In this document: positions 13,740 to 56,347 of the stretch, in pieces
Layout: every line of letters begins with the position of its first letter
Position numbering within the stretch: position 1 is the first letter of the stretch
NCBI GenBank assembly: GCA_044892505.1
Contig: CM097883.1
Coordinates: 45,570,001-45,634,000, forward strand
DNA from: Schmidtea nova
Taxonomy: Eukaryota
Length of the DNA: 64,000 bases
Reading direction: 5' to 3'
Notes under the pieces: generated by a model
What the model was told of the DNA's origin: nothing
What the model saw: the letters and a program-made list of their open reading frames with translations, nothing else
Database searches by the model: none
Made by a program: the position numbers and the translations under genes

Positions 13740-13762
<23 letters not shown>

Positions 13763-31266: not shown

Positions 31267-31403
31267 ATTGGCTAACCAACAACACCGGTTGAGTATAAAT
31301 ACTGAAGTCAAATCAGTATTTAAAAATGTCATTTTTACCAAGTGTAACTTGCAGTTGAGCACTGAGAACATTGTAAATCCAACTTGAAGGAAAAATAAAA
31401 GGT
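31267..31403 (+). promoter_or_regulatory. CCAAT-TATA promoter, non-coding first exon and splice donor
   Basis: ATTGG 31267, TATAAATA 31294-31301, Inr-like TCAGT/TCATT, AAAAG|GT at 31402; same order in unit A on the minus strand. Confidence 0.6.
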
Positions 31404-32452
31404 AATTGTTGTGTGTTAGATTTTTACTTTAAACCCTCATAATTATTTGTAACCATATTAAAATCAATAAGGTTTTCCGGAGGCCTAACAGCCTGACGGA
31501 TACTTGGGGCCTCTCAGCGCAACACAATCTTTCGGTTGTGAGGTGCTGATGCGGCGGGACCATAGGTGTATTAAATATTTGGAAAGCGGAAGGGGTTAAA
31601 TGCACATAGGGTATCGAGTAAGACCTAATGATCATGAACGAAATCAAGGTAGAGATGATCTAATATAAACGTTATGCATCACGATGATAGGGTATCGAGT
31701 ATAAACTAGTAGTCGTAAACGAGCGTAAAGTGAAGCCCGTTTTGTAGGAAGGATATATATCGTGGCGAAGTCTAGACGAGGGATAGACGTGTAGTGAATA
31801 ATATTAGGGTAGATGAATTAGGTGACGACGAGGGTAGGTATATGTCAACATTAGCGCGTACGAGTTCGGGCATAGTGAACCTAGTATCAAGGGTTAAGGA
31901 TAATCGATAACCTCTGTCAGCTGTGCTTAGTCGCCAGGAGAGATGATAAATAAGTCACAGGCATCGAGAACTGATAAAATGATGAACCCCAGTGAGTAAG
32001 GACCACAGGAACTTACGAGAATTACCCGACATGGTATGATCATTGCTGGTTAGATGAGGAAGTGATTGAGAACGACTGATGAGATTGAATGTAATAAATA
32101 GTATTATCAATAAATAAAAACGGTTGTAGTTGAGTGGTTGAACCTGATTGATGAAAATTAAGTATAATAGTGATATGATAATAAATGCACCAAATCGTGC
32201 GTAGCTGAATCGTTGAAATAAACAGCGGAGTACACTAGCATCAAGCTATCATCTAACACGACCCACATTAAGTCACCAACAATGATCCGGCAAAAATACA
32301 GAATGTACCACTCAGACCTACAAAATTTCGTAAATAATACGGGTGGGACGACTAATATAAATAGGTCCGTTCTACCAAAGAATCCGTAGAGTAAAACAAC
32401 CATTTTCTTTAGGAATACTATGGTGAAACTGGAGAGTTAACAAAAGAAGTCG

Positions 32453-33055
32453 ATGGTCGCGTGCACTATAAAGCTAGAGGATACCATCATTCGTAGGAAA
32501 CGGCGCACCCGTTCCGTCCTCAGACCAAAGGCGAACCCGAATATCAGAGGAGAGAGCGAAGCACCCCGAAAAGTTGTCGAAGTATCACGTCGCCACTTAC
32601 GACGATGGATGAGGGCCCATATGAGTTCAGCCGCTAGCACCCCAGCTTGCGCATTTGATCTACAGTTGCGGTGGGAAGGAGATACCGATTGGGTACCCTC
32701 CTCGGATCGTATCAAGCCGGAAAATACCCGATGGTTTTATCAATTCCTAGATGAGTTAAAGCAACCCCGCTGGCTACTGAGTACCGGAATGATGTCCGGA
32801 AAAGAGCTACATCAACTCGGATACATGCTGCTAGACAGGCCTCGGTGTGGCGACACTGGGGAAGTCTTCGCCTACTCAAACGCGCCAGGAAGCGTGTCAT
32901 TAGATCAATACCCCGAGCCCAAGGATCTACGCCTCTGGGAGGTATTTATCTTTCGAGACAAGTTAAGTTGGAGCCCCGCCCCGGAGCTATACTATGAAAG
33001 TGGAATCCGTCGTGACGAGAACACGGCCGACCAGGAATTACGACCCTTCATCTAA
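32453..33055 (+). CDS. Uncharacterised LTR-encoded 'RWEG' protein
   Basis: 200-aa ORF with three diverged paralogues in the window; in-frame ATG at 32420, just after the acceptor ttttctttag (32412), is cut off by TAA 32438. Confidence 0.75.
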   Translation: MVACTIKLEDTIIRRKRRTRSVLRPKANPNIRGESEAPRKVVEVSRRHLRRWMRAHMSSAASTPACAFDLQLRWEGDTDWVPSSDRIKPENTRWFYQFLDELKQPRWLLSTGMMSGKELHQLGYMLLDRPRCGDTGEVFAYSNAPGSVSLDQYPEPKDLRLWEVFIFRDKLSWSPAPELYYESGIRRDENTADQELRPFI

Positions 33056-33246
33056 ATCGCAAGGAAACCGATCCACCGAAGGAATATTTGATGTGTATTA
33101 AAAATAAATGTATTAATTTTTGGGTTTTGTTATGTCTTTGAATGTATGAAGCGATCTGAGAGTAAAACACCTGTTTGATAATAAAGATAGTGACTGGGAG
33201 AACAGACAAACCATACATAACCCGATTAATGATACATTTTACAGAG

Positions 33247-33810
33247 ATGAGTGAACATCCAACTAGGAACTACAAACAAGAGGCAAAAGAGCATAAAGCA
33301 CGATCGCGAGTCCTAGAAAACCGCTTGCGGCAGCTAAACGAAGAGCACCAGCGAATTAAAGCCACGTGGTTCAACCCAGAGAGGGTTAAAACCATCCTGC
33401 AAGCCAGATACAGGGCAGAACGAACAATCGACGAGCAAGCTAGGGAGGTCGCCGCACTAAAGATGGAGCTGTCGAATTACTTGAGGGCATCAACCCAGGA
33501 GTTCATCACCGAGCAATTACGCCCAGTGATCAGGGCTAGCACCTTTAATCGGTGGGTGGACACAATATCGATGACAACAAGTACCCAAACGGAAATAGAA
33601 ACCATCCCGATCACAACTACCACAATATCCCCAATAATTCTGGAAGGCTCGAAACGAACAAAAAGACGGAATCGCTTGGGAGCGAAAAAGCGTAGGGAGA
33701 GACGCGCATATGCAGATCGCGTCGGAATAGAGGTAGACTTGCTCAGTGGTCTATCCGAGCAAGAACTACTAAATGTAATCCGACCCTCTGTATTGTTAAA
33801 CTATAAATAA
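33247..33810 (+). CDS. LTR-encoded coiled-coil protein with basic C-terminal (NLS/RNA-binding-like) segment
   Basis: ATG follows the acceptor ttttacag (33244); KRTKRRNRLGAKKRRERR; homologous remnants in units B and D. Confidence 0.7.
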   Translation: MSEHPTRNYKQEAKEHKARSRVLENRLRQLNEEHQRIKATWFNPERVKTILQARYRAERTIDEQAREVAALKMELSNYLRASTQEFITEQLRPVIRASTFNRWVDTISMTTSTQTEIETIPITTTTISPIILEGSKRTKRRNRLGAKKRRERRAYADRVGIEVDLLSGLSEQELLNVIRPSVLLNYK

Positions 33811-34202
33811 ATGTATAAAATGAATGAGTTGACTTGTCTTGTTTGTTTGTGGAATGTCTGAGAATCAAATATAATAAAAACCCGGATTCATTTGAAGCTG
33901 CAGATATCTAACAATTAACTTACCCTAGGACACTAGAAAGGAGCTTAAGTGGGACCGAAAGAAAGCCACAGACACCTTCTATCGGTAGTGGTGGACCCGT
34001 GAATAAACAAGGGAATAGTAGCCGAAAGGTTGCTCACCTGCCTTGTCATTTCACAACGTTGACACAGCACCAACATGATGAGTAGTTAGGGATACATCAT
34101 GGGTGTCAGCGGGGGAAATGTTTTTATGTTGGCGAGATCACCCTAACGTATAAAATCATAAGGATCTCAGTTGTCAATCCAACCAACACACCAGCATAAA
34201 TT

Positions 34203-34220
34203 TGGGGGCTCAGCCGGGAT
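34203..34220 (+). promoter_or_regulatory. Primer-binding site, tRNA-Pro
   Basis: TGGGGGCTCAGCCGGGAT vs MLV-type tRNA-Pro PBS TGGGGGCTCGTCCGGGAT (16/18), directly after the LTR end. Confidence 0.85.
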
Positions 34221-34757
34221 TAAATCGATTGTTGTGGGAAAAAATGAATTCGATATCGGCGGACAGTTTAGAGCGCCTGAACCGGGATGAATTGAATTTA
34301 GCGAGGAAAGGTAAAGTAAATAATAACAGAGGGTTTAAGTGTCCTGAAGCAAGAATGAATCGGGTTGAAAAATAATAAATAAAAGTATGAGTGTAAGATA
34401 ATGAGATTGATGAACGTGATGAAAGTATGCATGAGAATGAAAGTATGAATGATAATGGAATGGAAGTATGAGGACGAATGAAGTATGATGAATAGTACGT
34501 GGAATAACAGTATGAAAAGCAAGGAAAGGTACGAATGACGTAATGTAAAAGTATGTGGGAAGGTGTGCATGAAAATGGTATGAGTGTGAGCAACTAGCAA
34601 TGATCATGTCGGGGCGACATTCAAGAACACGGGGGGATATACACGCAGTGACGCAAAACAGAACAACAGAAAGCGAACAGTAGGGCTACCATAGAATAGG
34701 AATGATAAATAAATAAATAAAAATCGATAACAAAATTAATGAGAATTCGTTCAGGGG

Positions 34758-35216
34758 ATGGAGAACAAAATAAAAGAAATGCAAACGTTTTTCGAGACAA
34801 ACAACGAAACAGTGGAGACCATAACGAGAAAGTTAAAACGACTCGAGGTAGGAGGATACCACGAACCGACAAACAACACAGAAAGAGCTGAAATGATAAT
34901 GAGCATAAACGAGAATAAGAACACAGTGGATACAGCAACACGATATCAGTGGTATAGAGAAAGATTAAACAACCCTGAGATGAATATCGAGTGCCACAGG
35001 CTAGAGCAACAGTTAACAACAAAACACGATGAGTGGATAAGAATAACAACAGAACATACGAGACAATATCTGACGTGTTATATCTGTGAAATGAACAAAA
35101 TACAGATAATGTTGTTGCCATGTGGGCATTTTCGATTCTGTAATGACTGTAAAATAAATGAACGATGTCCTATGTGCAACCTTCCCGTATCCGAGAAAAT
35201 AACAGTGTACTTGTAA
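34758..35216 (+). CDS. Coiled-coil + C-terminal IAP/MDM2-type RING E3 ligase-like protein
   Basis: CYICEMNKIQIMLLPCGHFRFCNDC....CPMC....I.VYL* at the extreme C-terminus. Confidence 0.8.
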   Translation: MENKIKEMQTFFETNNETVETITRKLKRLEVGGYHEPTNNTERAEMIMSINENKNTVDTATRYQWYRERLNNPEMNIECHRLEQQLTTKHDEWIRITTEHTRQYLTCYICEMNKIQIMLLPCGHFRFCNDCKINERCPMCNLPVSEKITVYL

Positions 35217-35904: not shown

Positions 35905-36576
35905 CGAGTTTTCGTTCGTGAGCATAGGTCTCATAGTGAGCATAGGTCTCGTCATAAAACATAACATCCTAGTGAGCGTAGGTCTCGTCATAAAACACAA
36001 CACCATAGTGAGCATAGTTCTCGTCCGTAAATATAAATCTTGTAGTGAGCAGAGTTCTCATCAATAAACGTAAGTTCTAACAGCGAACATAGTCCTCATC
36101 AGTGAGCGTAGTTCTCAGCAATAAACATAGTCATCGTAGTGAGCTTAGTTCTCATCAGGAAACATAATTCCTGTAGTCACCATCAGTGAGCATAGTTCTC
36201 ATCGGGGAACATAGTCCCCGGAGCAAAGAGTTTCCATCAGTAAGCAAAACCCTCATAACAACCATGTTTTGCCAGTGAGCATAGTTCTCGTCAGTGAGCA
36301 TAGTTCTCGTTAGTGAGCATAGTTCTCGTCATTGAGCATAGTTCTCGTCAGTGAGCATAGTTCTCGTTAGTGAGCATAGTTCTCGTCATTGAGCATAGTT
36401 CTCGTCATTGAGCATAGTTCTCGTCAGTGAGCATAGTTCTCGTTAGTGAGCATAGTTCTCGTCATTGAGCATAGTTCTCGTCATTGAGCATAGTTCTCGT
36501 CATTGAGCATAGTTCTCGTCATTGAGCATAGTTCTCGTTAGTGAGCATAGTTCTCAGCAGTGAGCATAGTTCTCGT
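35905..36576 (+). repeat. 19-bp tandem array (cagtgagcatagttctcgt), ~16 near-perfect copies at 36273-36576 plus degenerate upstream copies
   Basis: Direct reading. Confidence 0.95.
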
Positions 36577-36899
36577 TCGAAATAAAATATTGAGTAAAAG
36601 CCCACGAGAAAGACGACGAAGTGAGGCAGATGAGGACTAAATTACGTATAAAACTATCCGGATAGTGAAGATCAACAAGCGATAATGGAAATGAATAAGT
36701 GATAATGAGGATAAATGATGAATAGTGAAAATGAATAGCGAATAATGAGGAATAAGGGTTGAAAGAAACCGAATTAATAACGGGAGAGTTGAAGGTGCGC
36801 ACCTGGGTATTGATAAATGCGAGTAAAGCTGATTATGTGGCCTAATGACGTCAAAGTATGCATACAGAGGAGTAGTAAAGTAAAGTGAGTAAGTGAAGG

Positions 36900-37370
36900 G
36901 TGCTGACTGGAAAACCCAGCAGACCATGAAATTCGACGAGAGTAAAATGAAACCGGTTTGTTAAGACAAGTAAAGTGGTAAAGACGCTAGCTGGAAAACC
37001 CAGCAGGTCAAGGATAACGATCAGGAAAGATCGAGAGAACAAAAGTGAGTAACAATAAAGTGGTGAAATTGAGGACACTGACTGGAAGACCCAGCAGGTC
37101 AAAAATGATGATCATCGGAGTAAAGAGCAGTTAAAAGTCGACAGTGAAGAGATAAAGGGTGGATAATAAGAGCGCTGACTGGAAAAACCCAGCAGGCTAA
37201 TGAAACGACAATTGAGGTCGAGAATAATGAAGCAGAAGTAAAAGGTGAGATTAAAAGCGCTGACTGGAAAACCCAGCAGGCTAATGAGATAATGAGTGAT
37301 GTCGAGAGTAATAAAGTCGAGATAAAAGGTGAGATGAAAGGCGCTGATTGGAAAGCCCAACAGGCCAACG
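36900..37370 (+). repeat. Six spaced hairpin repeats (gctgactggaaaacccagcagg), period ~85-95 bp
   Basis: Copies near 36902, 36986, 37076, 37172, 37257 and 37341. Confidence 0.9.
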
Positions 37371-38241
37371 AGAGATGTCAGTTGAATTAAAGGTGAATAG
37401 AGATGAGAATTGAAATGAAGTAGTAAACGTAGTGTGAATAGGAGATAAAGTGAGTAGTCGAAAAACAGAGTAGTCGACAGATAAGGGGAAATTAGAACTC
37501 AGAGCCAGAGAAGCCTGAGAAAAAGTAAAGGGGATAATAAGAGCGCTGAGCGACAAAGTAATTGGGGAACTGGGGAAAAGTAATTGGTGTATTTGATAAA
37601 GAATAGATAATTGATGCGACTGCATAGATAATTTAAATAGACTTAAAATCAAGGGAAATGGGAAAAATGGGGATCTTCATGAATTATGACTACACCCGTG
37701 AGAGGGACGAGAAACACGATAACGGGGACGTATCGTGTAAGTGATTATTTGTTTTAAGGAAACAAATCAATCAAGCAATTCAAAGCAATCTAGCAGTCAG
37801 AGCAATCAAAAGAAACAAATCAAAGAAGAAGCAAAGCAAAAGCGGAGTAGAAAAGCAGTTGAGAATATAAGCAGTTGAGGAATAGACAAAATTGAGGGAC
37901 GAGAAACAAGATCAGGTATAATACCAATCTTAACGGAAGCAGAAAGAAAAGCAGCGAAAAGGACAAGAACAGGTAACAAGCCTAAGCAACAAAAGAACAA
38001 ACAAGTAGAGATCAGCGATAATTCGAGTAATAAAGAGAATCAAGAAGAAACCCCAGAAGATCTAGAAGTACAAAACGAAGTAGAGACGATAGACAGTGAA
38101 CTAGTCAGGGAAAACAGAACAAGAAGCGAATCAAGAGATAACGAAACAGAGAGTAGTGAAGAAGAAGAGTCGAATTCAGAAACAAGTGGTGAACTAGAAG
38201 CAAAGAAAACTAGTACAGTATTCCAAGATAGTGGAATCGGG

Positions 38242-41200
38242 ATGAGTGATCACAGAGAGGATCTAAGAGAAAAATTCAAGGGCGAACCATTCAATGGAGA
38301 CGCCAGTAGATTGGACACGTTCCTGAAGGAATTTGGCATATTCGTGGATATATGCGGATGGAGTGCAGAAACGTTAGCGAATCGAATCCCGCTATACTTG
38401 AAAGATAGCGCATTGGATCTGTATATTGAGAAGAGATCGGGAAGTAATCCACCCAGAACGTGGGAAGCAATCAAGGAGTTCTTCCAACAGACGTTTGGGA
38501 TAAATAAAGTGTTGAACGAAGCGTTCGATGAGTTCTCAGCAAGAAAACAGAGGAGAAACGAGTCAAATGCAGTGTACGCAAGCGAATTAAGAAAGTTGGC
38601 GAAACTGGCATTCAATAGAGGAAGCCCAGTAGACGAAGAATTGATGACAGCGTTATTCGTACGAGGTCTCAGGAGACCTGACATCAGAGCACAAGTGGGA
38701 TGCAAGGGATGTAAAACAGTAGATGAAGCGTTGGAAGCAGCCAACCTATTCGAATTGCATATGGCAATGAATGACATGAGAATTACGGCGGTAATGGGAA
38801 AAACGACAGAAGATGAAGAACAAGGAAAAAGAAACATGAATCAAAGTATCCCCCATTCGCAGAGATTGTTCAAAGAACCGCCAGCGAGGAAAAATAATGG
38901 ATATATCACAGTAAACACGAATGGAGGAAACAGTTACAATGACAGGCAGAATAGGCAATGTCAGACGTGTGGAAAAAACGGACATTGGCAACAAGATTGT
39001 TTTCAGAATGTAGCCTGCAAACTGTGTGGACAAAAAGGTCACTCAGAGAATCGATGTTATGGGAAAACGTGTTACACATGTGGAAAAACCGGACACATGT
39101 CAAAAGACTGTAATCAACAGAGAAGTTGGTCAAACAGTGGAAATAGACCGAATTACGGGAATCGACCAAGCTATGGGAATCAAGGCCAACAACGGAACAA
39201 CCCAAACAGCAGTGCAAACGAAGCTAGTATGAAAGAAGCTAAGTTGAGACAGGAGGTATCCAGATTACACGAGATAATCGAAAGCATGGCAAAGGGAAGC
39301 CAACAAGCTGCTCAACCAAAGATAAACATGATCCAGTTAATAGAAGCTGAGGCCGAAAGAGAAAATAGAGAAAGCCAACAGAAACATAATCAAGAATGGG
39401 CTAGAATACGACGAGAAGAAGAACAAGTCAGACAACAACGGTTACAACAGTTAAAGAAGGGAAATCCAAGGATCAACATGATGCGAGCAATGATGGAAGA
39501 AAAGCAGCAGGATGAGTCAGACGAGTTGGAAGTTAAAGAGAAAAGAAACGAAGAGCAGAAACAAGAAGAAGTGAATCAGGAAGTAGAAGCCGCAGAGCAG
39601 AATCAAAAAGTTGAAGAAGTAGAAAAAGAAACGAATCAAGAAGAAGAAGTGAGAATCAAACAAAGAGGAATGTTAGTGATCATGCCGAATGATCACGTGT
39701 GGCGATTCAAATACGATGTAAAAGAAGAAGTGGGGAAATTATTCAATAAAGTAAATAAGATGATTCCGGGAGTGACGAAACTGCCCAGAGAAGCATTCCT
39801 ACAAACAGAGGATTTGCCAGAAGTAAAATTGAAGATGACTGACACATGGGAAGATATGGGAGTAACAGAGACGAAAATAAACGTGATGATCATCAGAGAG
39901 GTGGAACCGGAGAAAATTCCCCCACCAGTGAAACACCAAACTCGGATCAGTCGAATATTCAAGGGAAAAATAAGACGAAGACGGTTGGAAGAAATAGATG
40001 AGTTAGAGAAAAGAATGGGAAAAGCTGAAGTAACGGGAAACGAAAGTGAACTAACACAGGAAGTTAGCAAAAACGAAGCGAGACCAATCGCGCATATTGG
40101 GATGCTGAGACACCCAAGACAAGAGTTGTCAGATGAAGAAGACGACAGCGAAGTTAGCAGTCTGGCAGGAGACATGCTAAAGGAACCGGAAAATGAGGAC
40201 AAAAAGATGGAAGTAGTCGAGACAATAGAAACAGTGTCGGTAAAGGAAGACGAAATTCAGAAGCTGATGGATAACGCGTTGGAAGTAATCCATAACGAGG
40301 AGTTTATCGACAGTAAACGACACCGAAAGTTCATACGAGCAGTATGGCAAATGAAGTATAAAGAGTGGTTACAAGAAAGAGAAGTGAGAATAATACAAGA
40401 ATTTATTGAGAAGCTTCTAAAAGAACCACTCAACGAATACATAATACAGATATGGATAAACGAGTGTTCACCGAGAATCTGGATAAGGAATCCAATGACG
40501 GATGGAATTTACAGATGGGTTGAAGACAGATTGGGAAGCTCGTACAAAGACAAGTTCATCTATTCGGAAAACGGATTGGTGAAAAAGGGAACGCATATGA
40601 TAGACACAGGCATCTGGCCAGGAGAAATAACAACGTTATCAATATGCAACACCAAAAAGGAAGAGAATCTACAAGGAATCGTCAAAGAAGCGAATACGTG
40701 TTACGAGATGAGAATAAAACCTCAGTTGATAGAGGCAAAAGAGAGAATCTTGGCAGAGAATTTGAATACGATGATAGAACAGATCATCCAACAAATCAAG
40801 AAACATCGAAAGGAATTGACGAAAAGCGAGTATGAGAATTTGAAGCAATGTATCGAGAACATACGAGATACAAGTCAAACGAGACATTCAAATTTCAAGA
40901 CGGACAAGCTAATTGCAAAGATGGGAAAAGAAATGTTTAAAAGAGGGGAAATATCAGATCTGAGGATTACCGTGAGATTACCGAACGAAGAAACAAGACA
41001 AATTGAGGTAATACCAGATAGTAAAGTGGGAGAAATAGTAGATGTCATCAATGAGACGATATTACAACGAGAACGGGAAGATGAATTCGAGGACGACATT
41101 GCGATAAAATACAAAGAACACCTACTGAATGAACGTGACGAAAGACGAGCGTATAAAATCGGCATATGGGATAATTATCAGACAATACATGTCATCAGAA

Positions 41201-47200: not shown

Positions 47201-50200
47201 ACTTTAAGAAGCCATTTCTGTTGGCAACAGACGCAAGTGGATATGCAGCAGGAGCAGTACTAGGCCAATTTGACGAAGAAGGCAAGGAAAGAGTAATCGG
47301 ATATTACAGTCGAACATTCAGAAAGCATGAAAAGAATTACTCAGTCACGGAAAGAGAAGCCTATGCGATAATATTGGCAATCAAGCATTTCAAGTACCTA
47401 TTGTGGGGTCATGAAATATATATCACGACGGATCATCAACCATTGGTATGGTTAGGCCAACATAAAGAATCATCAAGTAGATTGATGCGTTGGGCGATGC
47501 AGTTACAAGAATACTCGCCATTCATAAAGTTTAAAGCAGGAAAAGCAAATGCGAACGCGGATTGCATGTCAAGGTTTACATTTCCAGAATTGGTGAACCT
47601 AAACGCTCTGAAAATATGTGCATTAATAGCGGAAGATTTGGATTTCAGCGAACTAAGGAAAGATCAACTCGAAGACGAGGAGTTGGGAATGATCAGCAAG
47701 TATTTGAAAGAAAGGGAAATAGAAATATTCGACAAGAACCAAACGTTGCGCGAACATATGCAGAAATATCAACATAGATATGTGATGGAAAAAGGATGGT
47801 TATTGATACAAGATGGAGAACGGAGATTGATGTGCTTACCTGCGAATAGACGAAAGGAAATCATGACTCAATATCATGACGGAAAATTAGGCGGACATAT
47901 GTCAGCGAAAAAGACAATCGGGAGATTGAGACAAAAGTATTTTTGGCCAACCATGGAAGATGATGTGAAAGAATGGATAAAGAACTGCTTAACCTGTGCA
48001 ACAAGAAAGAACGTCGGAACGAAGTGGAAAACACCACTAAAACCTATGCCAATACCTGCAGAACCAATGGCAACAATAGCAATGGACGTAGTTGGGCCAT
48101 TGCCGGAAAGTTTGAAGGGAAATCAATACATATTAGTAGTCACGGACTATCTAACAAAGTTCCCAGAAGCATTCGCAATACCAGATCAAAAAGCGAAAAC
48201 AGTCGCGAGAATATTGGTGGAAGAGATATGCTGCAGATACGGAACACCCAAGAAAATCCTAACGGATCAAGGAACAAATTTCATGAGTGAAATATTAGAC
48301 GAAGTTACGAATTACTTCCGAATCGCAAAATTACGAACATCCCCATACCATCCACAAACGAACGGACAAACAGAAAGGTTCAATGGAACATTGATACGCA
48401 TGTTGTCAAATTACGTCAGCAAACACCAGACTGACTGGGACGAGTATATAAACTTGTGTTTAATGGCATACAGAATGTCAATACATGCGGCAACAAAGCT
48501 AAGTCCATTCCAACTGATGTACGGAAGAGACTGCAACTTACCGATCGATTTAGAATACCAACCACCATTATCACAGTACATGGAGGTTGACGATTACGTG
48601 ACGAAGTTCAAAGAAAGAATGCAAGAGATCTGGAAAACGGCGGAACTGAACATCAAGTTCTATCAAGAAAGTTATAAGGATCTACATGATCAGAAAAGGA
48701 ACGTGAAAGCACATGATTTAAAAGTTGGAGATTGGGTGATAATTGAGACACCAGAGATAATACCCGGTACGGTCAAGAAACTCCAACGACTCGGCAAAGG
48801 GCCATATGAAATAACAACAGTAAACGAAAATAATGTGCGAGTACGATTGGTGAACAATCCATTGGTAAGACCAATATACGTGAATGCATGTCGATGCAAG
48901 AAAATACCAAAGACAGCAACTCTATCACCAGAGAAACGGGTAATGACAAGATCACAGACGGCGAGAATCAGTATGTTGCGAGTACAACAAAAGCCGCAAA
49001 CAAGTCTAGAAGACAATCGAAGAGAAGCAATAGACATCAAAGAACTGGCAAAGAGGACCAGAGAAATCATACCAGAATGGAAATGTTGGTTCGATTTCAA
49101 TATACTGTCAGAAGTTCGAAAGAATGTAATGGAGTATGCGAAGGATAGAACAGCACACCCAATAACAAGAACGCTGCTAGAGGAAATCCCTCAAACATTG
49201 AATCTACAAGACAAAGACGGTAACACCGCGTTGCACAATGCAATCAAGCACAGTGGGAACGAAAAAGTGAAAGAGATCGTAGAGATGATACTCGAAGGTG
49301 GAGGAGAAATTGACAAAATAAATTGGGAAGGAATCACTCCACTTATGATGATGACGATTCATGGAAGAAACGACGAGATAATCAAGCTATTCGGAAACAC
49401 CAGATCGAATTGGATGACAAAAGATAAAGAAGGACGAACGTTCTTGAATCATGCAATCGATAGAGCAAATCACCGAATACTGAAGTATATCACGGAAAAT
49501 GCCACGTGGGAAATCGACGAACTAACTAGAGGATCTATCATGAAACAAGCAATCGGGGTAAAGAATAGTAAAACCTGGAGAATATTGCTAAAGTGGAAAC
49601 GACCAGAAGGAGATTCGTGGGTCATGGATTGTAATGAAGTGTTCATAAAGGGAGAAAATGCGCTACTGAAACATTTATTAGAAGTAACATACGATCCAAA
49701 AACACTTGCAGTATTAATAGCAAGAGATACTCTACGAGTCAGCGAGAACCCAAGAGAATACAAGCTGGAAGACAGAAAGAAAGAACTATTCGGATTAATC
49801 AAGAAATGGTGCGATAAGCAATGGAATCCGGATATGAGCTTCGAACATTTCTATGACATCCAAAAACAACACAAAGAAATAAGCAAGCGATATAAAGAGC
49901 TGATAGAAGCATTGAAGTATGGACAATTCTTCAGACAAGCAGTGTATCAAGACCAACGAATGAAACAGATGCAAACGCGAATAAGAAGCAAAGCAGTGTT
50001 GTTCAATGCAAAAGCCGATTATCAAGAGAGATTAAACGCAATCGTGGCTAAAGCACAGGAGAAATTATCGGAATTCAAGGAGAATAAAAATTCGTTGGAA
50101 ATACTAGGAACAATTACAGAGAAAGTGCACAGATATGCAGAAGGGGATTATAACGAGAGTGACATAGAAACGATCAAGAACCAAATGCCAGTAGCATTCC

Positions 50201-53121
50201 TATTATCAAAGGATGGGAGATTGCCGATACACTGGGCATTACGTCGAAAGAAAGAAAACGAAGTGCTAGAAATAACGAAAGCAATGGTCAAATGCGAAGC
50301 GGACATGAATACGGTTGATGATAACGGAGATACAATCATGATAATCGCGGCAAGGAAGAAGACGAACTGCAAAGTGCTAAACGAGTTATACGCAGCAGGA
50401 ACAAAAATCGAAGGGAAGAATGGAAAGAACAATTCCATCATAGATATCGCAATACAGTGGAACAACTTCGAGATGATCAAGTTCATAAAGTCCATCAAGA
50501 GACATGAGGACATAGAATACCTGGCAAATAACGTAAAGAATTTCAGTCTAACAGTAATGATACACGACGTAGAGAAAACAAGAGCATTACTAACATGGGT
50601 GAATCCGATCAACAAGGAACCAGTGTTCAAGATCAATGACCATATGGAACAGAATCAGAATTGGTGTATCAGAAGCGCGTTATTAAGACATAAAAAGCCA
50701 GAGATAGTAGAAGAATTCTTGAAGAGAAGAGATTTGAAGTTCACGAACAATCCAAAGGAACCCGAACGAACGGGAAGATGGAAAGACTTGTTCAGAAAAT
50801 ATGTGAATGAATGGACAAATGCCAAAGGAGCAATCAAGCAAAGTAGACTAGAAGACAGGGAACCATCCAAGGAGATGGAAATACGTGAATTCGAGTCTAG
50901 CGCACTCGCGGTTCAAGCGTATGAAAGATTGATTGAAGAAATTAATGTCGAGGACGACATTTCGAAAGGACCAGGGGGTGGTTACAGAGACTTCGACGAC
51001 AAAAGTAACAACGAAAAGAACAACGAAGACAATGACAACAAAAGAACAGAAGATAATGAAAAAGAAAGACAAGAAGAACCAAAGCCAACGAGAAACGACA
51101 AAAAGGAAGAAGCCGAAGAACGAGAAAACAGCGGAACAAAAGATGAACGTACAAACTATGGAAAACGAACAGGAAGTCTACTTTGGAGACCGGAAATGTT
51201 GTGCATTGCGATATTGTTAACAATCATCGGACAAGGAGAAGCCAAGAAACAATACGTCACGCTAGAGATAATTAGAGGAAATGAAGTATACGAAAGAATA
51301 TGCTGGAAAGAAAATCTGAAGAAAAACGATACGCTGAAGTGTATGTTGTCAGACTTGAAGCGAGACGTCATCCAAATCAAAGGGTTGGAGAAAGAAAAGT
51401 CATACATAATATGCGCAGTAAAGCAGAGAGGAGAACCAAAAGCACCTCAAGTAACTGCATGTCAACTATACAAAGCAACAGAAGCGCTGAAGATACAGAA
51501 ATGGATTGAGAAAAGAAGCGAAGAGACAACGAGAAGAACAGAAGTGGAACCAGAGAAAGGGGAGAATCAAACCGAAGCAGAAGAGGGAATCAGAAACCGA
51601 ACAGAGAAAGAAAGAATAACCAAAAATCCAGCGGGCAAATTAACATTCCAACCAGAATTGATATGTGTAGCATTAATATTAATCCTCATTAAGAGAATCA
51701 TGGAGGACATAGATATCAGCGTGATGACGTTAGTAAACATCCAAGATCAACGAACAACGAATGGAAGATGTTGGGGACGAAACAATGAAGTAATTGGAAT
51801 CAGCGAAACAAGAGAAAGTCGGGAAGCAGAGACAAATGAAGAAATCGAAATAACAGAAATAGAGACAGATAAAAAATGTGAACTATGTCTCATGGAAAAG
51901 GCAGCAAACGGGAACAGACCAGGAACAAGCGAGTGTAAAGTGTTCCAAGCAAAGGAGATAATTGAGTTCCCAAAAAGAAAGAAACAAGATCAAGAAATGA
52001 TTGCGAATGAGGTAGTAACAGTGGAGATAAAAAACATGGGTCGGAGAACAATTGGGATGTGTTGGAGAAAATACATCGGAGTATCGACCAGTCACGTAAT
52101 ACCGCAATGCAGGACGAGAGAACGAGGAATCCCGTTTCAACTAAATGGATTCGAAGTCGGACAAGCCTACGAAATTTGCGTAATCCGAAGAATAAGAGAA
52201 GTAATACAAAGAAGCCTGGAGTGCAAACTGTACAAGACGCCAGAGCAAATTAACGGAACAAGAACGATCGAAATGGGAGGAAGTCGACAGAGGAAAAGAA
52301 AGTCAAGAAGAACCACGACAACCAACAGTCAAGAAACTCAACAGACAACAACGGAAAGGACGTCAATAAAAAACGAACCGGAATCAACGACTCTGATAAT
52401 ATGGAAGATCCATAAAAAGGTCCTAGAAATCTGTTGGACATTAATGCCAAACAGTATGAGAGAGTCTCCACGAAACTGTCAAAAGACATCAAATGACAAA
52501 AGGGAAATAATCGAGGTAGAAATGAGGAGGTTGAAAACAAACGCGGAATACGAAGTGTGTGCAATCGAAGAAGTAGACGCACAAGGAAATCAACAAGAAA
52601 GGTGCGAAACCTATTACACGCCAAGGAACATAACGATAAAAGGGGGAACCCGCAAGTTAGAATTCCGAGAATTGAGTCAGAAGAGAGAACAAAACGAGAA
52701 GGAAGAAACAATACCAAATCAACAAGAAAAATGGGAACCAGAGAAAGTGATCGAAGAAGTCAGACGGAGACAACAACAATACGAACAATGGGAAGCAGAA
52801 TGGAAAGGTCAATATGGCGTGATGATAAACCAAAGTGAAACTCCGAAGATGAGCATTGGGAAAACAATAATGGGATTAATCAGCATGGGAGTATTCATAG
52901 GGTGTATACCGCTGATAACGATCATGATAGTATGTTGGAGATATGGCATGAGAAATAAGACCATAGCAGTAAAGTGGCCGGACGTAAAGGTCACGAATTA
53001 CAACATAAAACTACCAAAGGAAGTACGAGAAGAACTGAAAAGACGATCAAAACACGAAGAGATGTGGGTACAGATCGAAGACGAAGAACTGTACGAAGGA
53101 AAACCAGTGATAGTTGTATAG
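38242..53121 (+). CDS. gag-pol: 4959-aa polyprotein Gag-ZnK3-UBL2-BCL2-Env-PR-RT-RH-IN-ANK-FN3-like-TM
   Basis: CCHC x3 (38959-39110); IDTGA (45568); YIDD (46783); ATDASG (47221); HHCC, MDVVGP and LSPFQLMYGR integrase; ANK (DKDGNTALHNA, EGITPLM, DGRLPIHWA); BH2-like YILRKGGWEKF (42979); glycoprotein 43130-45050. Confidence 0.95.
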   Translation: MSDHREDLREKFKGEPFNGDASRLDTFLKEFGIFVDICGWSAETLANRIPLYLKDSALDLYIEKRSGSNPPRTWEAIKEFFQQTFGINKVLNEAFDEFSARKQRRNESNAVYASELRKLAKLAFNRGSPVDEELMTALFVRGLRRPDIRAQVGCKGCKTVDEALEAANLFELHMAMNDMRITAVMGKTTEDEEQGKRNMNQSIPHSQRLFKEPPARKNNGYITVNTNGGNSYNDRQNRQCQTCGKNGHWQQDCFQNVACKLCGQKGHSENRCYGKTCYTCGKTGHMSKDCNQQRSWSNSGNRPNYGNRPSYGNQGQQRNNPNSSANEASMKEAKLRQEVSRLHEIIESMAKGSQQAAQPKINMIQLIEAEAERENRESQQKHNQEWARIRREEEQVRQQRLQQLKKGNPRINMMRAMMEEKQQDESDELEVKEKRNEEQKQEEVNQEVEAAEQNQKVEEVEKETNQEEEVRIKQRGMLVIMPNDHVWRFKYDVKEEVGKLFNKVNKMIPGVTKLPREAFLQTEDLPEVKLKMTDTWEDMGVTETKINVMIIREVEPEKIPPPVKHQTRISRIFKGKIRRRRLEEIDELEKRMGKAEVTGNESELTQEVSKNEARPIAHIGMLRHPRQELSDEEDDSEVSSLAGDMLKEPENEDKKMEVVETIETVSVKEDEIQKLMDNALEVIHNEEFIDSKRHRKFIRAVWQMKYKEWLQEREVRIIQEFIEKLLKEPLNEYIIQIWINECSPRIWIRNPMTDGIYRWVEDRLGSSYKDKFIYSENGLVKKGTHMIDTGIWPGEITTLSICNTKKEENLQGIVKEANTCYEMRIKPQLIEAKERILAENLNTMIEQIIQQIKKHRKELTKSEYENLKQCIENIRDTSQTRHSNFKTDKLIAKMGKEMFKRGEISDLRITVRLPNEETRQIEVIPDSKVGEIVDVINETILQREREDEFEDDIAIKYKEHLLNERDERRAYKIGIWDNYQTIHVIRMDDVPRATPRDEERKKKRREDVMRKLRQIVEIYRNWQMKPEWETILGELDLNRRRLTPVEKQWDNKEKCWKVKRGVYEEDPEGEDRYERNTKRICMVTRRILPTDLDGPETAVIWAELEKQKTSELIELLRGNTRGKRQTIKGLAQFIITNGEDITNLRKVAKAIAEYKRVNEWCPEQLDDVIKKWRNKEFAEETPQKIHLRIMYPNQRKEEFWVMLTEKVKSVKEKLMYELPFHLQHQGRSLDNNLEIWLTPVQLDLMNTLTVAQIVGQPLKFKEEKKTKGSMSTPSPKKSTMTPGTSSGQTRTTPVKIREGTPPEAYDVDEILTDSDEAIEELTKLTQKPTANIFDRIIEMPITSPAEIDDQGVEQEVVIEMVNDSEDEQEQPQFTQEMERWLEQRANEGRDVTEETGRATRFVETGTGMEKRPRGRPKIDPATTIPKTREERRQEQWEICLKKLDKIAEIRGKEENQVCQGEEWLTKTIMDVLAIIDPELKNLWRINEPSTKARMLHNAITPIMPELIKAKTKSNHLDWQGTTMLIKRLLNGAETDSKYMVAISYTIYNLLTLSRGSPKSSPMGRHIKNTAMIIEKEIEPYILRKGGWEKFIKENQTKEGSNVMRKKLEGVLREMENRQTMQENGRSTLNLNSIIMMMLVWLLSTEGVTTFEVFDCDQMKLGEKYSLRGTEQCKDATPVELKEIKKEQWYHLYQEAELIKTMVNECKVQKTRFAFYCGRGHYSAIVMPGTEREPIVLQGEDCEALFKHGEVTTRDKIKIKGKPGMMLQQTYYVAGRITGGEGYCQGETYPIFGAPATNLVVMDTYIVELKSYEAFFEPTTGEMKTLSMCKIDRSMCQTGMSTLVYKPKVNECQLQLLQGAKFDEIQGKTFQEEDDDDKARAKHLKEALENKRQLKSEQREKRIEMRTTPTVLITTNQDVGMRFIKGKATLKCSTTVYETNYPGIYVSKQEVPNAKPKIDTMDIKLHLYVNNKMDFLFHRGQASLQKVYYDLINNDCILNREILKTKLAVAITNPDSAMPLLPLREGHFGRVVGEAMYVYICEKTHASLAATTQLKPGQCTNELEIDYKGKVRYVQPVTRIINPPGFEPNPFNCSNAYGPLYQKPDGKWVMFPGRTEVLAPREFELMQLSKDRQFSDVDVSNNGIYSPKDLEAARQNILFPARREALLSNIVTITGGTNYREGPNYELLLSPAHFKKATENMMKAMWGRFLIFGQMMAGILGVILIIQIVRVIITQMLACFDIYKREKKVNWKMVVGFLPFLAKTMVLHGHSKDIHRIKRLLKILAKMKGTNEDVGRKFKKIMQDEQARRQLKKERKGLWERVRGYRTQDDSSNDDDDDDDRGGQANINQIPQYNEKSTVENWRYSAPPQSMYNEPIYKAKPNMMQMMPMTSRYPIIPEDCKVKRGGSVNSLEDTHTIAVMSTNMGPILTTTVEINGREIEAMIDTGANISAIDINYIPEKNQGEIEKTNVHVIACSQETVEVAGRWFVKIKHRGAEINTYIAVIPSLSVPCIIGTDLMPDLFKEIVIDLGAMKLKDRTGKICRMKVKVASAEQIVVPARHEMMCYVKIDSTIKGDMVFEPSKKFEAKKELPMARELVTINQEGEIPINLVNFDEEDKIIYENENLGKLTPMSEIEIPDKNEKSKDELPWKIDSVLLDERQKEQLQKLLMEYKDIFATSDLDLGTCDVTLHTIPLTDETPIALRPYKLAEAQKAVAEEEVQKMLDAEVIEPSCSPWQFPVVMVKKKDGTQRFCIDYRRLNAVTKRDTYPLPDINEMLLTLQGAAYFTSLDLKSGYWQIKMKDEDKEKTAFTIGRDLYQFKKMPFGLTNAPASFQRCMNFVTHGIKQCMVYIDDLLIYSATFEDHLQDIRNVFVKLRQWKLKLKPSKCDWAKEKVTFLGHIVSAKGKEPDPRNIEKVKECPPPKTVTQIQEFLGLCGYYRKFIKDYAGISKPMQELVRQDVSFVWGEEQQAAFETLRDKLITAPILAHPDFKKPFLLATDASGYAAGAVLGQFDEEGKERVIGYYSRTFRKHEKNYSVTEREAYAIILAIKHFKYLLWGHEIYITTDHQPLVWLGQHKESSSRLMRWAMQLQEYSPFIKFKAGKANANADCMSRFTFPELVNLNALKICALIAEDLDFSELRKDQLEDEELGMISKYLKEREIEIFDKNQTLREHMQKYQHRYVMEKGWLLIQDGERRLMCLPANRRKEIMTQYHDGKLGGHMSAKKTIGRLRQKYFWPTMEDDVKEWIKNCLTCATRKNVGTKWKTPLKPMPIPAEPMATIAMDVVGPLPESLKGNQYILVVTDYLTKFPEAFAIPDQKAKTVARILVEEICCRYGTPKKILTDQGTNFMSEILDEVTNYFRIAKLRTSPYHPQTNGQTERFNGTLIRMLSNYVSKHQTDWDEYINLCLMAYRMSIHAATKLSPFQLMYGRDCNLPIDLEYQPPLSQYMEVDDYVTKFKERMQEIWKTAELNIKFYQESYKDLHDQKRNVKAHDLKVGDWVIIETPEIIPGTVKKLQRLGKGPYEITTVNENNVRVRLVNNPLVRPIYVNACRCKKIPKTATLSPEKRVMTRSQTARISMLRVQQKPQTSLEDNRREAIDIKELAKRTREIIPEWKCWFDFNILSEVRKNVMEYAKDRTAHPITRTLLEEIPQTLNLQDKDGNTALHNAIKHSGNEKVKEIVEMILEGGGEIDKINWEGITPLMMMTIHGRNDEIIKLFGNTRSNWMTKDKEGRTFLNHAIDRANHRILKYITENATWEIDELTRGSIMKQAIGVKNSKTWRILLKWKRPEGDSWVMDCNEVFIKGENALLKHLLEVTYDPKTLAVLIARDTLRVSENPREYKLEDRKKELFGLIKKWCDKQWNPDMSFEHFYDIQKQHKEISKRYKELIEALKYGQFFRQAVYQDQRMKQMQTRIRSKAVLFNAKADYQERLNAIVAKAQEKLSEFKENKNSLEILGTITEKVHRYAEGDYNESDIETIKNQMPVAFLLSKDGRLPIHWALRRKKENEVLEITKAMVKCEADMNTVDDNGDTIMIIAARKKTNCKVLNELYAAGTKIEGKNGKNNSIIDIAIQWNNFEMIKFIKSIKRHEDIEYLANNVKNFSLTVMIHDVEKTRALLTWVNPINKEPVFKINDHMEQNQNWCIRSALLRHKKPEIVEEFLKRRDLKFTNNPKEPERTGRWKDLFRKYVNEWTNAKGAIKQSRLEDREPSKEMEIREFESSALAVQAYERLIEEINVEDDISKGPGGGYRDFDDKSNNEKNNEDNDNKRTEDNEKERQEEPKPTRNDKKEEAEERENSGTKDERTNYGKRTGSLLWRPEMLCIAILLTIIGQGEAKKQYVTLEIIRGNEVYERICWKENLKKNDTLKCMLSDLKRDVIQIKGLEKEKSYIICAVKQRGEPKAPQVTACQLYKATEALKIQKWIEKRSEETTRRTEVEPEKGENQTEAEEGIRNRTEKERITKNPAGKLTFQPELICVALILILIKRIMEDIDISVMTLVNIQDQRTTNGRCWGRNNEVIGISETRESREAETNEEIEITEIETDKKCELCLMEKAANGNRPGTSECKVFQAKEIIEFPKRKKQDQEMIANEVVTVEIKNMGRRTIGMCWRKYIGVSTSHVIPQCRTRERGIPFQLNGFEVGQAYEICVIRRIREVIQRSLECKLYKTPEQINGTRTIEMGGSRQRKRKSRRTTTTNSQETQQTTTERTSIKNEPESTTLIIWKIHKKVLEICWTLMPNSMRESPRNCQKTSNDKREIIEVEMRRLKTNAEYEVCAIEEVDAQGNQQERCETYYTPRNITIKGGTRKLEFRELSQKREQNEKEETIPNQQEKWEPEKVIEEVRRRQQQYEQWEAEWKGQYGVMINQSETPKMSIGKTIMGLISMGVFIGCIPLITIMIVCWRYGMRNKTIAVKWPDVKVTNYNIKLPKEVREELKRRSKHEEMWVQIEDEELYEGKPVIVV

Positions 53122-53244
53122 AGGGTGGAATATGAGTGTAAATAGTATTGTAAAAACCAATGCATAACCGTATACGTATGGGTATAAATATTATAAAACA
53201 TAAAAACAAGAAAAAGAGAATGATGTATATAATCTAGAAAAACG

Positions 53245-53595
53245 ATGAATCAAGAAACCACAGAGATGTCGATGATGACAAGATGGAAAGTGCAATGTGA
53301 CCTGCTAGCCAGAACAGTAAATGAATTACAGAGCCAGTTGACGGCAAAAACGCAATTATTAACCGAGAGTTATAACTGTAATTTCGAAGCAATGAACAAA
53401 ATCGAGATCCAACAAATACAGATAAACGAATTACAGAACGAGAACCGAACATTAAATGAAGTGAACAACTGGCAAGCAGAGGAAATTGATCGATTAACGA
53501 GACATGAAGAGGAGGAGATACCGGATAGTTGGACGAGCTGGATTGTAAATGAGATAGACGTGTATCCAGAGCCAGATTCAACGGAGGATGTATAG
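53245..53595 (+). CDS. Small coiled-coil protein with acidic tail
   Basis: Heptad-rich LARTVNELQSQL..LQNENRTL; ends YPEPDSTEDV. Confidence 0.65.
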   Translation: MNQETTEMSMMTRWKVQCDLLARTVNELQSQLTAKTQLLTESYNCNFEAMNKIEIQQIQINELQNENRTLNEVNNWQAEEIDRLTRHEEEEIPDSWTSWIVNEIDVYPEPDSTEDV

Positions 53596-53684
53596 TGAAT
53601 AAGCGGAAAATTGTGTAAATACGTGTAAATAAAGAACCAGAAAAATCAAAAATATGGGGAAATTGATGTAAATATTGTTGTAGA

Positions 53685-55097
53685 ATGAGAGCAGAAAGCG
53701 AAGCAGATTACCAAACAATCGAGATTCTAAGAGGAGAGAATCGACAATGGGGAGTAAATGTGACGTGTGTAAAGTGTAAAAATTTACTGTTAAAACCGAG
53801 ACAAACCGAATGTGGTTGCAGGATGTGCACCAAATGTATACTACAAATAATCAGTGAAAGTGAGACAAGAAAGTGTCCAGAGTGTGAAGATAAACTACTA
53901 ATCAACGAGACGAAACCAGATAAAGCAATACAAAAGGAGATCTGGAAGATAAAAACAGAATGTATAAACCAACCATGTGAGTGGAAAGGTCAAATAATCG
54001 AGCTAAGACAACATCTGGAGAAATGCAAAAATAAGAAAACGATATGTGAAAAGTGTCAACAGACGATAACCATCAAGCAGTCGAAAAAGCACAAGGATGA
54101 GTGCAAAGCAGAGATAGTAGAGTGTCAATACTGCAAACAAAGAGAGACGAGAGAAGTAATCGAAACAGAGCATCTCAACGTAGCAGAAGAGAAAGTGTGC
54201 GGAAAATTCAGAGGAATTTGTCCAAGTAATTGTGGAGCCAGAGAAGAGGTGATGTTGAAAGAACATTGGGAACAGTGCGAATCAAGACCAAGAAGGTGCG
54301 TATGGAGTAAACAAGGATGTTTAGTAAAGAAAACGAGCAAAGAAATGAAAGAGCATTTAGAAACAGAGACAGTACAACACGCAGAGATGCTAACAGAAAA
54401 TTTAAACGGAATGGAACAAACCATACAGAAGCTGGGAAAAGAAATCGAATCTCAGAGAATAATGACGGAGTTATTACTAGAAACAAGAGAGCAATTCGAG
54501 CTCACCAGAGAGAAAATGATGGAGAAAATCAAAGTCATAGAGACATTGGTAAAAGAAGTAAACGTGCGACATCAAATGTGGGTGCGAGATGCAGAGGATA
54601 TCGAGAGTTTACCTGTTGCACCATATATATGGAAAATCAAGAATTTCAACGAAAAGTTCGCAGCAGCAAAAGCAGGAAGTCAAGTGTCGGTAACAAGTCC
54701 ACCATTCTATCTGTGGAAAAATGGATACAAAGTCCGGATGAGAATTTATCCAAATGGAGATGGATCAGGAAAGGAAACGCATGTGTCATTATTCTTTGCG
54801 TTGTGTAAAGGTGGTTACGACGACATATTAGAATGGCCACTAGAAACAAAGGCTATAATGAGAGTGAAAAACTCGAAAGAAACAATAGCGAGAGTATTCA
54901 AAATTGATGGTAAGCACGAAGCTTACAAAAGACCAACCACAGAATGTTCATTAGCGACTGGAGAACCAAAATTCATACCACACCAAACAATGTGGGAAAT
55001 GTTGTACGACGACAACTTATATGTAGAGTTGGAGATCGAAAAGAAAACAAGTACAACAGTGATGAACACGAAGTCAACGAAAGGATGGTTAGAGTAG
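53685..55097 (+). CDS. traf: Full-length TRAF-family protein (RING, TRAF zinc fingers, coiled coil, MATH)
   Basis: CVKC..LL.KPRQTECGCRMC..C...CPEC; YIWKIKNF; SPPFY...GYKVRMRIYPNGDGSGKETHVSLFF; DDILEWP. Confidence 0.93.
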   Translation: MRAESEADYQTIEILRGENRQWGVNVTCVKCKNLLLKPRQTECGCRMCTKCILQIISESETRKCPECEDKLLINETKPDKAIQKEIWKIKTECINQPCEWKGQIIELRQHLEKCKNKKTICEKCQQTITIKQSKKHKDECKAEIVECQYCKQRETREVIETEHLNVAEEKVCGKFRGICPSNCGAREEVMLKEHWEQCESRPRRCVWSKQGCLVKKTSKEMKEHLETETVQHAEMLTENLNGMEQTIQKLGKEIESQRIMTELLLETREQFELTREKMMEKIKVIETLVKEVNVRHQMWVRDAEDIESLPVAPYIWKIKNFNEKFAAAKAGSQVSVTSPPFYLWKNGYKVRMRIYPNGDGSGKETHVSLFFALCKGGYDDILEWPLETKAIMRVKNSKETIARVFKIDGKHEAYKRPTTECSLATGEPKFIPHQTMWEMLYDDNLYVELEIEKKTSTTVMNTKSTKGWLE

Positions 55098-55186
55098 TCA
55101 GAGTGAACGACCCTGTAAATAAAGTGTAAAAATCGACAACAACAATAAACGTATAGTGTAACAAGTGTAAATTTGTAAATTGCAGA

Positions 55187-56347
55187 ATGGAAAACGCAAA
55201 TGGACATGTAATCGAAGAGGAAACGAGAAACGAGATGTCAAACGAACAAGAAGCAATAGAAAGAGAAATCGAAAGGAGATGTAAAATGGAAGTGGAACAA
55301 AGAACCAGAGAATTACACGAAGTGATGACAAACAATTTCTACGAGAAACTGAAATGCGAAAGACAAATGGAGTTATATCAACTAGAACTCGAGGAAGTGA
55401 ATAAAGAGATAGTACAACTGACAACACAAATAGAGAAGCTTGAAGGAACGAATGTACGAAGTCGACAGAAGATAGAAGAGACCTATCAAATGATGAGAAA
55501 ACAAGCAGAACATTATAAAAATATGATGAAAACGCGAAGAGAAGAGAGGGAGAAACAAGAGGAAAAAATGGAGGTAAAAATACTAGCAATCAAAACTCAA
55601 GCGAGACATTGGAAGATGGAGTCGAAACGAGTATATAAAGAAGCCAAAGAGATAATCAGAAAGACAGCATACAGCGAAGATTGGAAACTGTATCAAGAGA
55701 TAGACGAATTGAAAGAGGAATTAGAACAGAGAAAGCGACAAGAACAGACAAACAAAGAATGGAGTCGAAAACGGCAACGATTTATTCGAGAGCAAGCGAA
55801 GGAACTAAAGAAAACGCAATGGCAAATACAGATGATAAATGGAGAAATGCGAGGCATTAGACAAAGAGAAGAAGCGGAAAGACAAAAGTTGATCAGGGAA
55901 AAAGAAAGTCTGGAAAGAGATGTAAATGGTTATCAAGGGGTGGTGACCCAAAAGAAAATGGAACTGAAAGCTGTGAAGGAAAGACATGCGGAATCAAACC
56001 GAGCTTACGAGGAGAATATAACGAATTTGACGAAAGAAAATGAGGAACTGAAACAGCAGATAATAACCCTGAAAGCAGAGAAAGAAACCACAGAAGTAGA
56101 AACCGAACCAACAGAAGTAGAAGACATGAAGAGAAAAGTGGAAGAGATGGAAAGACAAATTGAAACTCTGAGCGAACAATCAGACTATATGGAGTATCTG
56201 TTAGATGAAGAGATACAAATCTCTCGAACGTATCAAGATGAAATTGCAATGTGGAGAAGCAGAGTGGTGTGGTTACCATTTATACCACCACCACCAATGG
56301 AGCTCCAAGATGAAGGGTTTCATGAACCAGAGGAGACGGATGTGTAA
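55187..56347 (+). CDS. Long coiled-coil (SMC/myosin-like) protein ending in ETDV
   Basis: 386-aa E/K/R/Q-rich heptad ORF with a PPPP motif near the C-terminus. Confidence 0.7.
   Translation: MENANGHVIEEETRNEMSNEQEAIEREIERRCKMEVEQRTRELHEVMTNNFYEKLKCERQMELYQLELEEVNKEIVQLTTQIEKLEGTNVRSRQKIEETYQMMRKQAEHYKNMMKTRREEREKQEEKMEVKILAIKTQARHWKMESKRVYKEAKEIIRKTAYSEDWKLYQEIDELKEELEQRKRQEQTNKEWSRKRQRFIREQAKELKKTQWQIQMINGEMRGIRQREEAERQKLIREKESLERDVNGYQGVVTQKKMELKAVKERHAESNRAYEENITNLTKENEELKQQIITLKAEKETTEVETEPTEVEDMKRKVEEMERQIETLSEQSDYMEYLLDEEIQISRTYQDEIAMWRSRVVWLPFIPPPPMELQDEGFHEPEETDV

Follow-up and report, generated by a model that had tools for sequence, protein, structure and literature searches.

A giant long terminal repeat (LTR) element in a stretch of the planarian Schmidtea nova genome carries an intron inside its LTR, and the precise loss of this intron from sister copies records a cis-splicing event that joined a short noncoding leader to RWEG, the first of the element's accessory open reading frames (ORFs). 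The stretch, referred to below as the window, comprises 64,000 nt (GenBank assembly GCA_044892505.1, contig CM097883.1, positions 45,570,001 to 45,634,000 of the forward strand), and all coordinates are counted from its first letter. Judged by its domain layout against the published description of Burro (PMC6431247), the element is a Burro-like giant gypsy element. The same ATG-free leader is probably also spliced to the other seven genes, gag-pol included, by alternative cis-splicing. A first-pass annotation made from the sequence alone had noted a 3' splice site before every accessory ORF and had proposed either alternative cis-splicing or operon-like spliced leader (SL) trans-splicing. Its cis-splicing reading is borne out at RWEG by intron-less genomic LTRs; at the other acceptors the argument comes from conservation of the sites.

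Genomic copies that lack the LTR intron

The 3.3-kb LTR encloses both RWEG and ORF2, downstream of the TATA box, which corrects an earlier layout of the element. The visible part of the 5' LTR (30913 to 34196, plus strand, as for all parts of the window element) holds the promoter, leader, first intron, RWEG, and ORF2. The TATA box (31294 to 31301), which has a CCAAT-like motif upstream and is conserved in the main family and in the more distant family A, places the predicted transcription start at approximately 31325 to 31331. The leader exon (31325 to 31401) is hypervariable and ATG-free, and it terminates in AATAAA (31394 to 31399) plus AG. Across 47 distinct leaders (3,231 nt, counted from just past the predicted start, where many copies carry an ATG), no ATG was observed and 67 were expected, as is expected of a shared 5' untranslated region. 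The donor that follows, AATAAA(A)G/GTA, was present in all 19 of the unspliced 3' LTRs sampled irrespective of their donor, even as the leader preceding it varied strongly, and it was also found in families A and D. Position 31402 is the first base of the intron, which runs for 1,011 nt from GT to AG (31402 to 32412).

Use of this donor was revealed by a search for LTRs with no GT directly after the leader. The pattern had 430 matches genome-wide, with the GT donor intact in 417, another base in 12, and a chance match in 1. Among the 12 non-GT matches, 7 were of LTR type with intron-like sequence still downstream (the donor being changed or read one base earlier), 1 continued into unrelated DNA, and 4 ran directly into the RWEG exon. 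These four intron-less LTRs represent three insertions. The first, L122/L025, is identical on both flanks to the unspliced LTR L028, with exactly 862 nt, GT to AG, gone. L118 and L119 are the two LTRs of one element (2,283 of 2,285 positions identical) that retains its target site duplication (TSD), and 929 nt have been removed relative to unspliced L143. The remaining insertion, L128/L120, is an intron-less solo LTR with a TSD. Three other deletions that were inspected were joined at direct repeats of 5 to 11 nt and not at splice sites.

Because the first intron lies before the primer-binding site (34203 to 34220, at the same position in 17 of 17 aligned copies), precise GT-AG loss inside an LTR is the expected product of reverse-transcribed spliced RNA. 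The cis-splice from the leader donor at 31402 to the RWEG acceptor therefore took place in RNA that was later reverse transcribed, and this RNA cannot have ended at the poly(A) signal of RWEG or of ORF2. The primer-binding site is, we presume, tRNA-Pro-like. Sequencing-run contigs contained no GT-AG joint at the element's sites among the joints listed (15 of 129 in one set, 3 in the other); coverage of the element by the four runs is even and DNA-like, and contigs drop rare forms, so these joints are uninformative either way.

Leader, first intron, RWEG, and ORF2 (31325 to 33810; compared in L011 to L030 and L135 to L174) occur as many types about 76 to 90% alike in shuffled combinations, whereas copies agree at about 96% in the internal region. 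This pattern suggests that the LTR interior undergoes fast diversification and recombination.

YAG acceptors precede seven accessory ORFs

Positions given by the first-pass annotation for AG sites, ATGs, and donor-like motifs were all correct, and an AG does lie 1 to 7 nt upstream of each of the six accessory ATGs it named; every one of these is a YAG (Y, pyrimidine). The six are RWEG (32420 to 33055, acceptor 32412), ORF2 (33247 to 33810, acceptor 33244), the RING ORF (34758 to 35216, acceptor 34754), accessory ORF A of 116 amino acids (53245 to 53595, acceptor 53237), the TRAF ORF with RING, zinc finger, and MATH domains (53685 to 55097, acceptor 53683), and a coiled-coil-like (CC) ORF of 386 amino acids (55187 to 56347, acceptor 55185). 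A seventh had been missed: ORF7, with its ATG at 56421 and a YAG at 56418, is represented in the window by its start alone (56421 to 56520), since a deletion extending into the 3' LTR truncates it, and encodes 174 amino acids in other copies. The RWEG ATG at 32420 is homologous to the start in other copies, but the window copy is interrupted at codon 7 by an in-frame stop (32438). RWEG had no Pfam match and no homolog in protein searches.

An AG alone is weak evidence in a strand that is 40% A, as AG occurred 0 to 7 nt upstream of 346 of 606 control ATGs. A YAG within 7 nt upstream is more telling, being found at 7 of 7 accessory ATGs versus 124 of 606 controls (P ≈ 1.5e-5); no YAG occupies that interval at the gag ATG. 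With the added requirement of a T-rich, G-poor tract, 6 of 7 ORFs passed versus 26 of 606 controls, under a filter that was picked post hoc.

Sister copies retain these sites, although close copies weigh little as conservation evidence. The anatomy set was drawn from twenty sister copies, in which ORF A, TRAF, CC, and ORF7 had their YAG in 20 of 20, ORF2 in 19 of 20, and RING in all 16 that could be aligned (3 of the 20 stretches lacked the element and 1 lacked the RING region). In the TRAF search, 150 of 2,430 candidates were scored, most of them at >90% identity. More weight falls on divergent sequences. For RWEG, a YAG lay 1 to 11 nt before the start in 47 of the 48 LTRs (of 60) with an assignable start, the exception being a mis-picked ATG; TAG and CAG interchange at this site, the YAG-ATG spacing takes every frame, and the 60 nt preceding the YAG are merely 33 to 55% alike between types. 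In more distant copies the YAG was present at 11 of 11 ORF A starts and 12 of 13 TRAF starts. L190, L191, and L201, at 34 to 67% protein identity, retain a YAG before RING, A, TRAF, CC, and ORF7 with altered spacing; the RING acceptor in L201 is retained at 50% protein identity.

Two further families in the window extend the comparison, with the RWEG and ORF2 acceptors kept in most of 12 copies each of families A and D. Copy A, an LTR of a distant family on the minus strand (10270 to 12552), has a TATA box, AATAAAAG followed directly by a GTACGT donor at 12056, and a YAG directly before both its RWEG ATG (11077) and its ORF2 ATG (10270); the first-pass annotation had recognized the first of these acceptors correctly, although the site is on the minus strand (ATG 11077 to 11075). 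In copy D, an LTR fragment of a third family on the plus strand (22744 to 23780), a YAG stands directly before the ORF2 ATG at 23562, and the one claimed before the RWEG ATG at 22754 exists at a distance of 9 nt, outside the 1- to 7-nt range. A fourth, decayed LTR piece with RWEG and ORF2 remnants (24856 to 26670) sits in a hAT-like transposase (23957 to 24667 and 26741 to 27148).

The gag-pol mRNA and its start

Both 31402 and a GTAAGT at 37737, upstream of gag, had been put forward as donors. The first is the donor used, as the genomic copies lacking exactly that intron show, and the second found no support. The GTAAGT belongs to a block almost invariant in 36 copies, yet in the distant gag comparison, where 2 of 20 stretches contained gag, it was missing from both relatives covering the region, and the pattern search found no spliced genomic copies using it. 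The same two relatives keep an acceptor at the position of 37758, with TTTTGTAG or ATTTTAG where the window has the acceptor-like TTTGTTTTAAG (the motif pair spans 37737 to 37758). This site is the likely gag-pol acceptor, and the gag-pol mRNA is likely formed by joining the leader to 37758.

The 483 nt running from 37759 up to the start codon of gag contain no ATG, with 7 expected, and L201 is ATG-free over 589 nt. Within this interval an ATG-free 121-codon frame (37879 to 38241) is continuous with gag and looks coding: 33 of 66 changes are synonymous, no new stops appear, and 84-nt duplications are in frame. An in-frame AAA-ATT-G at 37888 recurs in 19 of 20 further copies and is visible in L201 and L205, making the ATT at 37891 a candidate near-cognate start; translation of gag-pol may begin at this AUU. 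Protein searches with the gag N-terminus found nothing. Two other schemes were rejected. An ATG-bearing mini-exon (37641 to 37736) spliced into gag would have no codon pattern and no good in-phase acceptor and would be unlike the distant relatives, and an AUG supplied by the leader or an SL at 37758 would be stopped by the stop at 37876, invariant in 36 copies, with no coding pattern from 37759 to 37875. The block from 37641 to 37736 is itself conserved (8 changes per 100 nt versus 20 to 40 nearby), and a packaging-type RNA element accounts for it equally well as an ATG-bearing mini-exon.

Poly(A) signals and a proposed expression program

AATAAA occurs downstream of 5 of the 7 accessory ORFs (P ≈ 0.007 against a noncoding background). 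Of the 51 AATAAA in the element, those with the three T-richest downstream tracts follow the leader, RWEG (33103, with a GU-rich tract), and ORF2 (33806, likewise with a GU-rich tract). The tract downstream of the RING signal (35221) is borderline, and those of the 3' spacers are not U-rich. The donor sits between the leader AATAAA and its GU-rich tract, 2 nt past the AATAAA. In HIV-1 (human immunodeficiency virus type 1) and foamy viruses, donor-bound U1 suppresses polyadenylation in the 5' LTR, according to PMC3694450. Separately, TGTA[ACT]ATA occurs six times in the 25.6-kb element, always in a short 3' spacer (53137, 53224, 53614, 53624, 53667, and 55114), and similar motifs persist in L190 and L191; they match the Pumilio element or CFIm UGUA sites.

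These features suggest how the element might be expressed. One LTR promoter would start all RNAs near 31325 to 31331. The donor at 31402, which was joined to the RWEG acceptor in RNA later reverse transcribed, would also be joined to 33244, 34754, 37758, 53237, 53683, 55185, and 56418, giving every ORF a separate mRNA in which it comes first. Unspliced RNA would hardly be translatable by scanning for gag, since about 6.9 kb and three ORFs precede it. The RWEG, ORF2, and perhaps RING mRNAs would finish at their own poly(A) signals, and the four 3' mRNAs either within their spacers or inside the 3' LTR. With the donor 2 nt after AATAAA, U1 bound there is predicted to suppress 3'-end formation in the 5' LTR. 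Only RNAs keeping the primer-binding site, either unspliced or spliced within the LTR, are predicted to be copyable, which would explain why genomic copies show the first splice only.

Alternative explanations

Several observations weigh against a single leader serving all eight genes in cis. One junction has been observed, and a leader-ORF2 junction was found in 0 of the 13 non-GT matches although such RNA keeps the primer site; a pattern search for the purine-preceded TRAF junction gave one match, an ordinary deletion. The intron-less copies themselves may reflect two to three events, because L118 is nearest to unspliced L143 and L122 is marginally nearest to L118, so the two are possibly of one origin, and the RWEG type of L120 has no unspliced twin and its junction was checked on the donor side only. 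The start site is a predicted one, and an ATG at 31326 falls just outside the counted leader span. Acceptor quality is also uneven: the 3' acceptors have weak, A-rich tracts, the 37758 site is AAG and not YAG in the window element's family, and the YAG has been lost from some old copies at ORF7 (2 of 11) as well as at TRAF (1 of 13). Lastly, the 3' genes would require an intron of 22 to 25 kb that passes over four acceptors and several poly(A) signals.

That last difficulty would disappear under a hybrid arrangement in which the LTR genes are cis-spliced and the four 3' genes form an operon. Cleavage and polyadenylation of the long RNA would then take place in every spacer, and the host SL would be added to the fragment that lies downstream. 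Planarians possess SL RNAs (as cited in PMC8629364), and the spacers of 73 to 123 nt resemble the operon spacing of approximately 100 bp that the same paper reports for Macrostomum. TGTA is dense in the spacers (3 to 5 per spacer versus 0.42 per 100 nt overall), and AATAAA is present in two of the four; the other two lack it, however, and where it occurs no U- or GU-rich tract follows. A working donor exists upstream at 31402, and trans-splicing is described as prevailing at acceptors that lack an upstream donor (PMC8629364); for RWEG, SL trans-splicing is unnecessary. The flatworm SL ends in AUG, as stated in PMC9851317. At all four of the window's 3' acceptors (7, 1, 1, and 2 nt) this AUG would fall out of frame, a weak objection given that in Schistosoma the frame is kept in only 28% of cases. 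On balance we regard this arrangement as unlikely.

More improbable still is a reading in which the downstream YAGs are unused and conserved as translation context. The spacers would then hold small internal promoters for the 3' genes, or ribosomes would reinitiate along a single long RNA. A possible promoter motif, TATAAATA, lies about 55 nt upstream of the ATG at 53245, the repeated TGTAAAT(A) could serve as DNA-level factor sites, and an internal promoter is used by foamy viruses (PMC3694450). Spacers of 73 to 89 nt are nevertheless short for promoters, the YAG persists while its spacing to the ATG and the neighboring letters change, and the signature is identical at RWEG, the one acceptor shown to be used. 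Alternative cis-splicing from the LTR leader remains the probable explanation.

Structure of the element and other features of the window

The element is about 29 kb in size. Full copies have an LTR of about 3.3 kb, an LTR-to-LTR distance of about 26.2 kb, and a 4-bp TSD, close to the approximately 30 kb of Burro. The LTRs, 3,132 to 3,317 bp long, have TG...CA ends, with a 4-bp TSD in other copies, and the 5' and 3' LTRs were 99.8 to 100% identical in 14 of 14 measured pairs. In the window, the 3' LTR is a remnant (56516 to 56832, 100% equal to the sequence from 33859 onward) that lacks the promoter, the leader, and its own poly(A) signal.

A domain search placed a zf-CCHC at residue 275 of the 4,959-amino-acid polyprotein (38242 to 53121), a mononegavirus-type fusion glycoprotein at 1902 to 2243, a protease at 2429, and a reverse transcriptase (RT) at 2741, followed by RNaseH, integrase, and ankyrin. 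A single giant polyprotein with env between gag and pol, as in Burro, is thus combined with ankyrin and TRAF/MATH cargo, also as in Burro. The BIR domain expected of the IAP cargo in Burro1 was not found in the 13 proteins searched, which contained only the RING at 34758, and the element is therefore not Burro1 itself. Between RING and gag lie a 19-nt tandem array and 84- to 91-nt repeats (35907 to 36590 and 36899 to 37380). An in-frame RT-TRAF fusion in L058 (1470 to 1525) comes from a deletion at a 9-nt repeat and not from splicing.

Elsewhere in the window, a second RING ORF (59221 to 59634), outside the element, is 27% identical to the element RING. Two identical RT/endonuclease ORFs at 13751 to 18478, candidates for a Penelope-like element by layout, lie in a 1,942-nt perfect inverted repeat whose ends recur at 57202 to 57392, adjoining the broken 3' LTR. 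The region from 1 to 9861 is Helitron-like, with Rep/helicase sequences, and tandemly amplified, its 1,544- and 2,150-nt repeats being 100% identical. A host Use1-like gene piece on the minus strand (20811 to 21089, PF09753) scored an E value of 1e-8, below the cutoff.

Relation to known systems

In the passages of PMC6431247 consulted, the Burro/GYPSM1 giant Ty3/gypsy elements of planarians share a polyprotein of approximately 5,000 amino acids, an in-frame fusion glycoprotein placed between gag and pol, ankyrin, TRAF/MATH and RING cargo, and a size of about 30 kb. Relative to that description, the window element encodes TRAF in an ORF of its own beyond pol, gives no BIR match, and has two ORFs in the LTR past the promoter. 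Those passages contain nothing on splicing or on accessory-ORF expression, and a literature search found no account of splicing in Burro elements; supplements lay outside that search, and data of this kind could be present in Grohme 2018 and Lee 2026.

HIV-1 and the adenovirus major late unit splice one noncoding leader to alternative acceptors that immediately precede start codons, and adenovirus uses several poly(A) sites. As in complex retroviruses, the major donor of the window element follows a short noncoding leader and is used. It differs from both viral examples in being an invertebrate LTR element with eight nonoverlapping genes and an array partly in the LTR, and no Rev-like export factor was identified. 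Foamy viruses (PMC3694450) carry their major donor within the LTR repeat, close to the poly(A) signal of each LTR, and splice the pol mRNA separately; the window element is gypsy-like and not a retrovirus, has its donor 2 nt past AATAAA, and likely needs splicing for gag-pol itself. With SL-resolved operons of flatworms and nematodes it shares a tight same-strand gene row, spacers of about 100 nt, and an acceptor before each start (PMC8629364 and PMC9851317); unlike them, it has an upstream cis donor that is in use.

Spliced subgenomic RNAs of single genes are reportedly known in LTR elements. The element class and its cargo are already known; the novelty lies in a row of eight genes, some of which are carried, along with an intron, within the LTR. 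Whether the element has independently evolved a full complex-virus program is a bolder proposal, to which we give slightly less than an even chance. Such a program would comprise eight genes, two of them in the LTR, one leader, a donor overlapping the LTR poly(A) signal, a spliced gag-pol RNA without the primer site, an AUU start, and separate translated and packaged RNAs, and in its boldest form the 3' genes would be resolved by the host SL, giving a mobile operon of mixed cis and trans splicing.

Planarian genomes contain Burro elements in abundance, and one such element is reported, second-hand in PMC13465017, to protect stem cells via an accessory gene. If a shared leader does serve alternative acceptors, the element or its host could switch on single cargo genes, such as TRAF or RING, without the transposition machinery. 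Because genes and an intron can travel inside the LTR, solo LTRs may remain as two-gene expression units.

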